Assembly (NCBI GenBank): GCA_965214705.1
Contig: OZ243972.1
Coordinates: 3,744,001 to 3,808,000 of the forward strand
From: Alphaproteobacteria bacterium
Lineage (GTDB): Bacteria; Pseudomonadota; Alphaproteobacteria; UBA828
DNA length: 64,000 bases
Reading direction: 5' to 3'
Shown: piece by piece, positions 2,501 to 5,756 of the stretch
Position numbering within the stretch: position 1 is the stretch's first letter
Layout of the letters: every line of letters begins with the position of its first letter
Made by a program: the position numbers and the translations under genes
Notes under the pieces: model-generated
The model's database searches: none
Told to the model about the DNA's origin: nothing
Seen by the model: the letters and a program-made list of their open reading frames with translations, nothing else

Positions 2501-2843
2501 AGGGACCGGCGCGCGCGCTTCGTCCGTTCTTCGCGGGGCTCGCCGCGAATGCCCGGCTGCGGTGGGGCGTCCGGCTTATCCTCGGCCTTCTCATCGGCTA
2601 CGCAATCCTGCTGCAGACCGAGCGTCTCGCCGCGGTCCGGAACGACCACGACGCCGAGCTCGAACGTCTCAAGAAAGCCGAGACCCTGCTTGAACAGCAA
2701 GACGCAGTTGATCTGCTCGCAACCGAGCGAGAGAACCAGCGCAAGATCAGGTCGATGTTCTGGCAGGCGGAAACCGAGGGGCTGGCACAGGCTAAGCTTC
2801 AGGCGGCGCTTGCCCAGCTATTCGGCAATTTCGGGTTGACCAA
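2497..2843 (+). pseudogene. gspM: GspM-like T2SS protein, N-terminal fragment (split by mobile element)
   Basis: ATGA overlap with gspL; TM helix then coiled coil and AETEGLAQAKLQAAL. Host sequence ends at ...TTGACCAA (2843); the ORF reads into the element and stops at 2925. Confidence 0.75.
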
Positions 2844-2847
2844 GGTT

Positions 2848-2889
2848 AAGGGTTGGGCAGGCTCTCTCTCGAGAGCCTGCCCAACCCTT
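2848..2889. repeat. Perfect 19-bp-stem hairpin at the transposase-distal end of the element (ori-like end)
   Basis: AAGGGTTGGGCAGGCTCTC (2848-2866), loop TCTC, GAGAGCCTGCCCAACCCTT (2871-2889). Confidence 0.95.
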
Positions 2890-2903
2890 TTGAACGAAGC
2901 CGC
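2890..2903. repeat. 14-bp inverted repeat, left (subterminal) copy
   Basis: TTGAACGAAGCCGC is the exact reverse complement of GCGGCTTCGTTCAA at 5496-5509. Confidence 0.95.
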
Positions 2904-3151
2904 GGGCCACGAGAGGCGAAGTTGAGCTATGTGGAAAGTGCGCTGATGTCAGCGTCAGGCGGCATCCACCGGCAGCAGAGTTGCGCATAAAATCGACGCT
3001 CGCGCCGGTCTTTCGGCAGGCATGCGGGCGCACGCTGCGAGGACTGAGCGGGGTGTGAGCCGAGGGCTGTCAGCCCGGCTCAAGCGGAGACAGGTTCGGT
3101 CGTGCGTCGGCGCTTTGGCGCCGTTGCGCGGGGCCGAAGCGAGCGGGCGTC

Positions 3152-4393
3152 TCACGGTTTCCCCCTGTGGGTCGGCGGCAGCGCCGGCGGGCCGCGCGTC
3201 GAGCGGGGCTCATGGCGGCGGCGGATTTCGCGGACGAGGCGCATGACGCCGCCGCAGTGGGGGCAGGCCACGGGCGCGGTGCCGATCTCGGGCTCTTCGT
3301 CGGGCTCGGCCCGAGCGCCGTCCACGCTTCCCTCGGGGGCGGCGCAGCCGAGGGCGCCGAGAGCCTGGCGTGCTCTCTCCAGCGTGCTGGCGCGGCAGCC
3401 GTTGGCGAGGATGCCGAAGTAGCGAATGCGGTGCATGCCGTCCGGCAGGACGTGCCTCAGGAAGCGGCGGATGAACTCGTCGGCGCTCACGGTGGCGATG
3501 CCGTAGCGCGGCTTTCTCTGCCCCGGCGCCTTGGGCTTTCGGTGGCGGAAGGAGACCGTCTCGCCGTCGAAGGAGACGATGCGGCTGTCGGAGATGGCGA
3601 TCCTGTGCGTGTAGTGCGAGAGGTACCGGAAGACCTGCTCAGGCCCGCGGAAGGGCCGCTTGGCGTAGACCACCCAGTCCCTGGCCCGGGCGGCGGCAAG
3701 CGTGGCGTGGAACTCGCCGGGATTGGCGAGGTGGGCGAGGGTGCCGTGGAACTCCAGGTCCCCCCGGCCGTGGGCGCGGGCGAGCTCCTCGAGGAAGAGG
3801 CGGCGGAACAGGCTGCCGAGGACCTTGACGGGGGCGAGGAAGGTGGTGCTCCCCGTCTTCCACTCGCCACTGTCTACGTCGAAGCCCGCGTTGGGCACGA
3901 CCACGTGCAGGTGCGGGTGGAAGCGGAGCTTCTGATCCCAGGTATGGAGGACCGCGGTGCCGCCGATGCGCATGCCGCCGTGGCGGGGATCGGCGGCGAT
4001 GGTGCGCAGGGTCTCGGCGACGGCCCGGAAGAGGATGTCGAACACCACCCTGCGGTTGCAGAAGGCAATGGCGGCAACCTCCTTGGGCAGGGTGAAGACC
4101 ACATGGAAGTAGGGCACCGGCAGGATGTCCCCGGCGCGCTCCTCGCTCCAGAGGTTGGCGGCGAGACCCTGGCAGGTGGGGCAGTGGCGGTTGCGGCAGG
4201 AGTTGAAGAGCGGATGCTCGCGCCCGCAGCCCTCGCAGGCGTACATGTGGCCGCCGAGCACGGCGGTGCGGCACGCCTCGATGGCGCCCATGACCTTGAG
4301 CCGGGCGGCGTCGATGCGCCCTTTGTGGCGCTCACGGAAAGCGGCGCCGGCGCGGCGGAAGATCTCCGCCACGCCCGCGCGTTCGGCCTCCAC
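3152..4393 (-). CDS. IS91-family transposase (zinc-binding N-domain + Y2 HUH domain)
   Basis: CEGCG...SCRNRHCPTCQ zinc motif, YFHVVFTLP, LHTW...HPHLH (HUH), YLSHYTHR (YxxxY), FIRRFLRHVLP.G.HRIRYFGILAN, C-terminal CPHCGG. Confidence 0.95.
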   Translation of the reverse strand: MEAERAGVAEIFRRAGAAFRERHKGRIDAARLKVMGAIEACRTAVLGGHMYACEGCGREHPLFNSCRNRHCPTCQGLAANLWSEERAGDILPVPYFHVVFTLPKEVAAIAFCNRRVVFDILFRAVAETLRTIAADPRHGGMRIGGTAVLHTWDQKLRFHPHLHVVVPNAGFDVDSGEWKTGSTTFLAPVKVLGSLFRRLFLEELARAHGRGDLEFHGTLAHLANPGEFHATLAAARARDWVVYAKRPFRGPEQVFRYLSHYTHRIAISDSRIVSFDGETVSFRHRKPKAPGQRKPRYGIATVSADEFIRRFLRHVLPDGMHRIRYFGILANGCRASTLERARQALGALGCAAPEGSVDGARAEPDEEPEIGTAPVACPHCGGVMRLVREIRRRHEPRSTRGPPALPPTHRGKP

Positions 4394-4399
4394 GCGCCG

Positions 4400-5278
4400 T
4401 CAGTTGCGCAACGCTGCGAAGCCTGAGATCGGGTGGTCGAGGCCCTCGAACATCTTGCCGGTGACGCGGGCGTAGTGACGGGTCGTGTTCGCGCTTCGAT
4501 GGCCGAGCATGTCCCGGATCACCTCGATATCGCCGCCGCGCTCGAGGAGATGGGTCGCCGCCGAATGGCGCAGGCAATGGAAGGTGTAGCTGCGGTCGAG
4601 CTCGGCAATGTCGCGCGCCCTCCTGAAGGCGGCCTGCAAGGTCTCCGTTGCGATGGGCCTGTCGAGCGAGACGCCGTAGAAGAGCCAGCTCGTCGGACGC
4701 GGCCAGATGTTCCTGTAGTAGACGCGCAAGTAGTGGATGACGATGTCCGGCAACGGTGCCATTCTCTCGGTGCCGCCTTTGCCGGAGGGGATGTGCAGCA
4801 GCTTCTTCTCCGACAGGATGTCGCCGACCTTGATGGCCAAGGTCTCGGAGATGCGGAGCCCGCCGCCATAGCCGGTGACAATGGCAGCACGGTGGCGGAG
4901 GTCGGGTGTCGCAAGGATGAGGTGCTCGACCTCCTGCTCCGACATGTAGCGCGGCAGCTTGCCGGGCTTCTTGCGGGAGCGCAGGCCGGCGACATGGTCA
5001 GGCCAGCCGAGTGTGTCGATGTAGAGGAAGTTCAGCGCGGCGAAGGAGACGTTGGTCGTGCCCGGACTGAGCCCCTTGTCGATCCGCCCCAGGTACCACT
5101 GGCGCACCTGCTCGGCGTCGAGCTCGTCCGGCGAGGCGTCGTAGTACCTGGCCAGGTTCTTGATCTCGCAGATGTAGGCCTTGGACGTGCTCGCGGCCAG
5201 ATTGGCGATGCGGAGCTGCTCCTCCATGCGCTGGCGAAGAGGGGTGACGGTGTTCGTGTCGCACGCGGTCCCGGTCAT
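4400..5278 (-). CDS. Tyrosine recombinase/integrase (XerC/D-like) paired with the IS91 transposase
   Basis: Catalytic set intact: GLRISE, GKGG, HCLRHS, LGH, TTRHYA. N-terminal SAM-like domain starting TPLRQRM. ATG 5278 preferred over the track start 5440. Confidence 0.93.
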   Translation of the reverse strand: MTGTACDTNTVTPLRQRMEEQLRIANLAASTSKAYICEIKNLARYYDASPDELDAEQVRQWYLGRIDKGLSPGTTNVSFAALNFLYIDTLGWPDHVAGLRSRKKPGKLPRYMSEQEVEHLILATPDLRHRAAIVTGYGGGLRISETLAIKVGDILSEKKLLHIPSGKGGTERMAPLPDIVIHYLRVYYRNIWPRPTSWLFYGVSLDRPIATETLQAAFRRARDIAELDRSYTFHCLRHSAATHLLERGGDIEVIRDMLGHRSANTTRHYARVTGKMFEGLDHPISGFAALRN

Positions 5279-5495
5279 TATCGATCTCCCTGGATCGCGA
5301 CGGCGCGCCGCCGGACCGATCCGGCGACGGTCCGTCGCAGGGGTCGATGCTAACCACTGGTGATCGGGAGGCTGCTGGGGATCCGCCACCCGACGGGCGG
5401 AGCGCCACTGACGCAACCGGGAAGCGAACGCACAGAACAAACGGCACCCGCGACGCCTCGGAAATGAATGAACTCTACGCCGCTAACTCCGCGTA

Positions 5496-5509
5496 GCGGC
5501 TTCGTTCAA
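5496..5509. repeat. 14-bp inverted repeat, right (terminal) copy, overlapping a 7-bp hairpin
   Basis: GCGGCTTCGTTCAA; GCCGCTA (5479-5485) can also pair with TAGCGGC (5494-5500). Confidence 0.9.
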
Positions 5510-5756
5510 TACCCATTTCCGGTCGGGCTCAGGCCAACCGGTCCCTGACTTGCCGGGGATTTGGAGAATACAAGTCCGCATGGATACCAATTACCGGCCG
5601 GGACTGGAGCTTCGCATACTCCATGCTCTCGCGACCCATCCCAACAAGCTTATCGTCGATCGTCTCGATCTCAAGCGCCACAATCAGAACGAGGCCTATC
5701 TCGTCCTTATCGTTTCATCCTACTTCGTGGGCGTGGCCACACAGGAAACTAGCTGA
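5510..5756 (+). pseudogene. gspM: GspM-like T2SS protein, C-terminal fragment
   Basis: (N)THFRSGSGQPVPDLPGIWRIQVRM...KLIVDRLDL...YF...* joins the N-fragment in frame (347+247=594 nt, 197 aa). Confidence 0.75.

Follow-up and report, generated by a model that had tools for sequence, protein, structure and literature searches.

An IS91-family insertion sequence with an integrase gene, present in about ninety copies in an alphaproteobacterial genome, and the fold of its joined ends

Results

We examined a 64,000-nucleotide stretch of an Alphaproteobacteria bacterium genome (GenBank assembly GCA_965214705.1, contig OZ243972.1, positions 3,744,001 to 3,808,000; here called the window). Near its start lies an active insertion sequence (IS) of the IS91 family, belonging to the subgroup in which the transposase gene (tnpA) is directly preceded, on the same strand, by a gene for a tyrosine recombinase (int) (Table 1). 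The element has the traits of the family, namely, a Y2 transposase, insertion without target duplication, a ter-like target beside the ori-type end, and subterminal palindromes at both ends. The two-gene subgroup is itself already known; ISfinder lists IS91-family members with an upstream integrase, and the element has the same two-gene layout as these.

Table 1. Features of the element and its left flank, in window coordinates
Feature	Position	Strand	Basis
Host flank TTGACCAA, target half-site 5' of the insertion point, ends CAA	2837..2843	+	Sequence, logo
Complete insertion sequence, 2,666 bp; ori-type end at 2844, ter-type end at 5509	2844..5509	- (genes)	Copies and empty sites
GGTT, 5' tail of the + strand, which is antisense to the genes; bulges out as 4 nt when the joined ends fold	2844..2847	+	Sequence, fold
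ori-end hairpin, perfect 19-bp stem (2848-2866/2871-2889), loop TCTC (2867-2870)	2848..2889	.	Repeat search, fold
TTGGGCA, paired with TGCCCAA (2878-2884): second inverted arm inside the hairpin, pattern YGNNNAA	2853..2859	+	
Subterminal 14-bp inverted repeat TTGAACGAAGCCGC, at the hairpin foot	2890..2903	+	Sequence, repeat search
tnpA, IS91-family HUH-Y2 transposase, 413 amino acids	3152..4393	-	Pfam, NCBIfam, motifs
int, Xer/integron-like tyrosine recombinase	about 4400..5278	-	Pfam, structure matches, catalytic residues
ter-end palindrome GCCGCTA-8 nt-TAGCGGC	5479..5500	.	Sequence, fold
Terminal 14-bp inverted repeat GCGGCTTCGTTCAA, ends CGTTCAA; the element stops there	5496..5509	+	Sequence, copies, empty sites

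The element had originally been predicted, from the sequence alone, to be an integrase plus IS91 element, and this identity was borne out by Pfam and NCBIfam matches. TnpA matched Y2_Tnp (2.7e-54) and Zn_Tnp_IS91 (4.3e-30) in Pfam and is an IS91 equivalog in NCBIfam (NF033538, 382.5 bits; cut-off, 125). Its translation contains HPHLH and YLSHY, which we take to be the HUH and YxxxY motifs. The start of tnpA follows the int stop codon by 6 nt. Int matched Phage_integrase (6.7e-33) and Phage_int_SAM_4 (7e-12) and fell below the NCBIfam cut-offs of XerA, XerC, and integron integrase. It differs from integron integrases in that it scored 130.1 bits against TIGR02249 (cut-off, 265), with the match in two stretches, and the insertion specific to IntI was not found in it. 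The closest solved structures were XerC-like 4a8e, XerD, and IntI4, the last with a split match. The catalytic hexad R-K-H-R-H-Y was kept in 55 to 56 of 56 distinct homologues (27 to 66% identity), which argues that Int has been selected as an enzyme and not merely as a DNA binder. A survey of tyrosine recombinases assigns the enzymes of IS91 elements to an "integron-like" subgroup that lacks the IntI insertion (bioRxiv 10.1101/542381).

Copies and empty sites

The genome that holds the window comprises 7.9 Mb in three contigs (C1 to C3) at 67% G+C. A BLAST search of the element against this genome returned 132 matched pieces; those with >97% identity included 92 left and 89 right ends, that is, about ninety near-identical copies, and 62 copies were full length with distinct flank pairs. 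With about 90 ends in one genome, the lineage has been unusually successful. All left ends begin GGTTAAGGG, and all full-length copies finish CGTTCAA. An uninterrupted paralogous empty site was available for only 13 of the 62 full-length copies, since many copies sit inside other repeated elements. Ten of these 13 comparisons showed precise insertions, two had one or two additional A residues at the left junction, after the target and before GGTT, and one, for an old copy, showed G>A at -2; none (0/13) showed a target duplication. Because the copy ends and the empty sites agree, the element extends over exactly positions 2844 to 5509, and the ends as first placed are those shared by the copies. 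A 2-bp duplication of AA was considered and rejected, as copies with the left flank CAT or GAT still finish CAA. Likewise, a left flank GGAAGTTCG that appeared to be shared by eight copies was in reality a 2.1-kb IS inside the element, and the true flanks of these copies are NAA or NAT.

In contigs of public sequencing runs, the word depth of the element (over window positions 2744 to 5609) was ∼50 to 90 times that of its flanks (for instance, 880 to 940 versus 9.5 to 17 in run X1 and 464 versus 5 in run X4). Thus, the element is high-copy in other samples too (several organisms, 12 studies).

Ends of the element and their fold

The terminal repeat GCGGCTTCGTTCAA is the perfect complement of the subterminal repeat TTGAACGAAGCCGC. 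The repeat search recovered both, as well as the 19-bp stem, as they had originally been described. The end upstream of int carries the ter-type palindrome, followed by TTCGTTCAA. Folded with DNA parameters, the joined ends gave a stem of 14 bp and 19 bp interrupted by the 4-nt bulge at -42.5 kcal/mol, which reproduces the junction fold of the original prediction; the hairpin alone gave -24.8 kcal/mol, and 300 shuffles gave -9.8 ± 2.3 kcal/mol. The arms CGTTCAA and TGCCCAA are 9 nt apart on one strand of the folded junction and 5 nt apart on the other, and the YGNNNAA pattern of the second arm is common to the ter end and the target. When the integrated ori end was folded together with its host flank, the CAA of the flank paired with TTG.

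A natural junction of the two ends is present as a head-to-tail tandem in the same genome (C2 ∼646552-646629), where the sequence reads CGTTCAA/GGTTAAGG (here and below, a slash within a site marks the junction or cut). This junction is a perfect 78-nt palindrome, in which AACC has been added opposite GGTT and the loop has been inverted to GAGA. Among 94 left ends, 86 have the loop TCTC and 8 have its inverse, GAGA. Since the junction has been perfected to a palindrome and the loop inverted in 8 of the 94 left ends, the hairpin has evidently formed in vivo. As a separate observation, a solitary 50-nt GGTT-hairpin-AACC piece without the element lies at C1 3505988-3506037, directly after the ter end of another int-bearing IS91 element (family D).

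Target site

A target logo was built from 53 independent full-length insertions, which are the 62 full-length copies minus 7 with a nested IS and 2 of the tandem; the background was 16.6% A and 16.6% T. The element inserts without duplication, 3' of AA, in CGNNCAA/R-N5-TT. On the left side, the preferred bases were C at -8 (29/53) and -7 (31/53), G at -6 (39/53), C at -3 (28/53), and A at -2 (50/53) and -1 (43/53). On the right side, +1 was G or A in 44 of 53 sites (G in 25, with C rarest at 2), and T was preferred at +7 (28/53) and +8 (24/53). The left half, CGNNCAA, thus agrees at five positions (-7, -6, -3, -2, and -1) with CGTTCAA, the last seven bases of the element itself. The right half is a weaker mirror image, TT followed by G or T, so that the target reads (C or A)AA, 6 bp, TT(G or T).

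If the target were itself a hairpin, positions -k and +(spacer + k) should be complementary, and for spacers of 4 to 8 this complementarity was no higher than in shuffled pairings, so this reading was rejected. As the complementarity within sites is only what composition gives, the AA and TT signals are independent preferences and not a stem. The original prediction had proposed that such elements may select their targets by base pairing with guide bases beside the hairpin, as IS200/IS605 elements do. A full guide of the IS608 kind predicts T at -4 and -5, and no T preference was found at either position (8/53 and 14/53, respectively). Further, there was no bias in the direction of replication (46 co-oriented versus 43 anti-oriented insertions by local GC skew), which fits a double-stranded target.

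Related elements

A transposase scan with one genome per species gave 80 related loci, mostly from Alphaproteobacteria, and int was directly upstream of tnpA in 73 of them. All relatives examined, which comprise three further families in the same genome and loci of other genomes, share one layout of the ends. In gene orientation, this layout reads flank, TTGAACGAAGCCGC, int, tnpA, GCGGCTTCGTTCAA, 0 to 3 nt, a variable hairpin, a short conserved tail, and flank. The combination of a terminal repeat, a subterminal repeat, a hairpin, and a short tail is thus kept in every one of these relatives.

In an alignment of nine related ori ends, 7 of the 15 stem pairs carried compensatory double changes. 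Matched changes likewise affect the inner bases of both repeat copies (GCCGC and GCGGC to GGCGC and GCGCC, to AACCGC and GCGGTT, and so on), and the bases on the cleavage side stay TGAAC and GTTCA with at most single-base changes in the relatives examined. Because these cleavage-side bases are near-invariant, covariation between a guide and its target is not observable. The subterminal repeat lies 0 to 3 nt from the hairpin foot in all aligned close relatives, 3 nt in most. In 7 of 9 close relatives, exactly 9 nt separate the second arm from the 5' end on one strand, and 5 nt separate it from the subterminal repeat on the other. This arm reads TGCCCAA here and TGCTCAA, TGGTCAA, TACTCAA, TGCCTAA, TGATTAA, or TGCTAAA in relatives. 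The 4-nt bulge, by comparison, does not generalize: its exact form is peculiar to the window element, and the close relatives have 7 nt facing 3 nt, with more in a Bradyrhizobium group.

AA stands just 5' of the tail in all nine aligned ori ends, and the tail of relatives is TCTT where the window element has GGTT. The target logo of a TCTT relative from another genome had A at -2 in 19 of 19 sites, A at -1 in 15 of 19, T at +1 in 10 of 17, and T at +8 in 12 of 17. Since AA varies among the 19 ori-end flanks of this relative (AA in 15/19), it belongs to the target there too. The pattern AA, six bases, TT thus recurs in an independent relative. The target base at +1 follows the element's own first base: the GGTT element has G there at 25 of 53 sites, the TCTT element has T at 10 of 17, and a Bradyrhizobium relative has T at all sites.

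The Bradyrhizobium genome holds 25 copies and a tandem junction that reads CTCAAGA/TTGAACG. We had considered an outer GGA...TTCC as part of these elements, and the tandem junction rejects this; because of that junction, the outer GGA and TTCC belong to the target (approximately GGAA/TCC). Junction and target share AATC. In this group, all right flanks (L093-L117, L049, L062, L073, L079, and L091) have GATTC ∼17 to 20 nt past the end, and left flanks often have GAATC a few bases before the end. Elements of the group may home to a structured repeat.

Several further observations concern tandem copies and the families within the window's own genome. Tandem copies were seen in three genomes. A near-tandem in G002 (C2 605456-610445) consists of a full related copy, 2 nt, and then a 5'-truncated copy that starts at element position 329. 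A second int-bearing IS91 family in the window's genome is 2,614 bp long (int, 293 amino acids; tnpA, 407 amino acids) with the same end layout, and it is represented by C1 1526488-1529101 and about 9 more copies. Its flanks often have palindromes like its own repeat, for example, GTTGAGCTCAAC or GTTCAACTGCAC. The window element has inserted twice exactly at the ter end of this second family.

Comparison with elements that lack int

IS91 (with orf121) and IS1294 were taken from Escherichia coli plasmid records, and their ends were set by similarity across plasmids. The ends so set agree with those given in the literature (PMC13181058). The ter ends are CTCG in IS91 and GTTC in IS1294, each after the palindrome GCAGCC-tggc-GGCTGC, and the window ter end aligns to these as palindrome, TTC, GTTC, and AA. 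In IS91, the ori end is preceded by GTTC on the strand antisense to tnpA. The original prediction saw an echo of the IS91 target CTTG at the boundary of the window element, and this echo proved to be on the wrong strand (IS91 strand checked on locus L123): where IS91 has GTTC before oriIS, the window element has NCAA.

The ter end (30 nt) was then joined to the ori end (110 nt) and folded. In five int-bearing families, the two ends formed 8 to 26 pairs with each other, with a gain of -4.5 to -14.6 kcal/mol (5/5). In contrast, IS91 formed 0 pairs with a gain of 0, and IS1294 formed 3 pairs with a gain of -2.3 kcal/mol. In this small sample, the fold-back goes with the integrase. The suggestion that the tyrosine recombinase acts on the inverted repeats gains indirect support from this difference and from the retention of the Int catalytic residues.

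Discussion

The element resembles IS91, IS801, and IS1294 in its orthologous transposase, the lack of target duplication, a ter-like target 5' of ori, and palindromes at both ends. Unlike these elements, it has a tyrosine recombinase gene and a 14-bp terminal and subterminal inverted repeat. Unlike in IS91 and IS1294, its ter end pairs with the ori region. The target differs too: NCAA, with further signals between -8 and +8, takes the place of CTTG or GTTC. Subterminal palindromes at oriIS and terIS are a described feature of IS91 (PMC13181058), and a review describes IS91 as having no inverted repeats (PMC5714925). Our literature searches found no printed account of the ends, junction fold, target logo, or integrase role for int-bearing IS91 elements. 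The original prediction thus held in part: the identity of the element, its ends, the fold, and the layout stood, and the CTTG echo, a 4-nt bulge as a general trait, and a full base-pair guide did not.

The identity and ends of the element, its copy number, the lack of duplication, the target logo, the fold and its conservation, and the absence of the fold in two relatives without int are established by the analysis; who cuts what is inferred. Our favored reading, which we hold tentatively and at somewhat less than an even chance, is that TnpA makes single-stranded circles and that Int, acting like a Xer or integron recombinase, integrates the folded junction by one strand exchange. TnpA would nick at host-AA/GGTT and start rolling-circle replication that displaces the + strand, which is antisense to the genes. 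It would then close this strand at CAA/ into a single-stranded circle, as shown for IS91 itself, of which only the bottom-strand single-stranded circle inserts (PMC13181058). In the circle, the 14-nt ter end would pair with the complementary subterminal repeat at the base of the ori hairpin. The resulting long hairpin would present the inverted arms CGTTCAA and TGCCCAA, 9 nt apart on the cut strand and 5 nt on the other, and would constitute a pseudo core site like integron attC and the single-stranded genome of CTX phage. Int would then bind the fold together with a loosely matching double-stranded target (arm-AA, 6 bp, TT-arm) and exchange one strand at CAA/, and replication would complete the insertion. 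It is also possible, though we would lean against it a little further, that int-bearing IS91 elements in general are two-enzyme hybrids of this kind, in which an HUH enzyme copies out the circle and an integron-like Int inserts an attC- or CTX-like junction into loose, Xer-core-like double-stranded sites.

Integron attC and the single-stranded CTX phage genome are precedents for folded pseudo core sites. In outline, the proposed reaction would resemble integron attC x attI recombination, with a folded single strand, two inverted boxes, unpaired bases on one strand, and one exchange after AA. The ter end GTTCAA fits RYYYAA, which we take to be part of the attC core. The likeness has its limits, in that the integron core crossover is AA/C, whereas here the cut follows AA and is itself followed by C in only 2 of the 53 targets, and, unlike in integrons, no cassette array is present at this locus. 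The single-stranded genome of CTX phage reportedly folds into a pseudo dif site at which XerC makes one strand exchange (Val and colleagues, 2005). The parallel would lie in single-stranded circles from HUH rolling-circle replication, a fold that creates the recombinase site, and irreversible Xer-type integration without duplication. The corresponding feature here would be the pair of arms CGTTCAA and TGCCCAA, putative Int arms whose 9/5 spacing is conserved. In contrast to CTX phage, both enzymes would come from a 2.7-kb IS, and the targets are many loose sites instead of dif.

Several points weigh against an insertion step by Int. An Int-catalyzed step is not needed to explain the products, as TnpA is an IS91 orthologue with intact motifs. 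Canonical IS91 TnpA inserts circles unaided, and the lack of duplication and the mimicry between target and ter end are traits of the IS91 family (PMC13181058); the mimicry holds in IS91 relatives without Int. The spacing of the arms in the fold (9/5) does not match the 6 bp of the target, and the right half of the target dyad is weak (G at +9 in 20, C at +12 in 26, and G at +13 in 24 of 53 sites). The left arm of the Bradyrhizobium target (GGAA) is not a copy of the ter arm. Xer-type core sites have arms that end in AA and TT around a 6- to 8-bp center, and the likeness of the target to these is a putative one. The comparison with elements lacking int covers two elements only. Finally, no joint from 5509 to 2844 was found in contigs of four public runs; 20 runs hold the element, and as only contigs were searched, this says nothing about absence.

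The strongest alternative is that TnpA does all the chemistry as in IS91, nicking ori, closing the circle at ter, and inserting 3' of a ter-like site, with Int as an accessory; we regard this as a serious possibility that nonetheless falls well short of probable. The fold-back would then merely bring the 3' end beside the 5' end for termination and circle closure, and Int might serve to resolve tandems or cointegrates, or it might control termination in the manner of IS91 Orf121. This explanation needs nothing new, given an IS91 equivalog with a zinc-binding domain and the HUH and YxxxY motifs, and the family traits just cited speak for it, as does the correspondence of the ter palindrome and GTTC to the IS1294 and IS91 ter ends. 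The additional A residues seen at the ori junction in 2 of the 13 empty-site comparisons would be consistent with imprecise nicking where the donor flank is AA. Copies whose tnpA is split by an IS have many different flanks and may be mobilized in trans, and tandems of the kind seen in three genomes would occupy a resolvase. However, this alternative leaves unexplained why, among the elements tested, an inverted repeat and pairing between ter and ori occur only in those with int. It also accounts neither for the second, inverted AA/TT signal 6 bp away in the target nor for the second arm at its fixed 9/5 spacing in a drifting hairpin. Moreover, a purely regulatory Int would not need the full catalytic hexad.

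An unlikely alternative is that the fold-back has no function, the repeat copies being ordinary double-stranded protein sites and the hairpin an element of ori, with their adjacency incidental. Matched changes in both repeat copies would be expected for any repeat read by one protein, and the bulge varies in size among relatives, but the constancy of the short distance between subterminal repeat and hairpin foot, the 9/5 spacing in 7 of 9 close relatives, and the evident formation of the hairpin in vivo speak against it.

The element also shares with IS200/IS605 elements such as IS608 an HUH enzyme, subterminal hairpins, the lack of duplication, and a target equal to the sequence at one end. 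We nevertheless consider it improbable, more so than a functionless fold, that the cleavage site is chosen through pairing of TTG(AACG) at the hairpin foot with ter end, donor flank, and target: the five of seven matches between target and ter end, the pairing of the flank CAA with TTG, and the complementarity of the Bradyrhizobium target bases 3' of the cut (TCC) to an internal GGA before TTGAAC would fit such a guide, but T is not preferred at -4 and -5, which face AA in the guide, most close relatives have 3 nt between the repeat and the hairpin foot, the near-invariant TGAAC and GTTCA show no covarying guide pairing of the kind known from IS200/IS605, there is no replication-strand bias, and the transposase is a Y2 and not a Y1 HUH protein.

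The element offers clean material, with about ninety near-identical copies, exact ends, empty sites, a 16-bp logo that recurs in a second genome, a natural tandem junction, and the contrast with the integrase-less IS91 and IS1294. The fold may explain what the second enzyme, Int, is for. Were Int to insert the folded junction, integrons and CTX-type phages would be joined by a third, independent case in which folded single strands serve as recombination sites, and rolling-circle transposons would be connected with integron-like recombination. Such insertion could also account for relatives at integron attC sites; one is ISShvi3, which is called IS91-like and is mentioned beside an attC site (PMC9229058). 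Should TnpA do everything, the element would be an ordinary, though very successful, IS.

Other insertion sequences in the genome

The genome is extremely IS-rich, with 116 matches to the Y2 transposase family, several other multicopy IS, and many nested insertions. The 2.1-kb IS encodes a 592-amino-acid open reading frame, has terminal repeats CCGAACTTCC and GGAAGTTCGG, and lies in both orientations in the 8 copies of the element that contain it. It occupies TTAAG at element positions 3 to 7 (window 2846-2850) with a 5-bp duplication; an example lies at C3 1555947-1558050, and elsewhere it is likewise found at NTTAAG. A 1.65-kb IS (440-amino-acid open reading frame, IS110-like in appearance) splits tnpA at an identical base in ∼20 copies of the element, at approximately window position 4204 (element position 1361; example, C1 1661344-1662994). 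Eighteen full copies of this IS are present in the genome, mostly at the tnpA site. Either this site is a specific target of the 1.65-kb IS, or the composite element is spread in trans.

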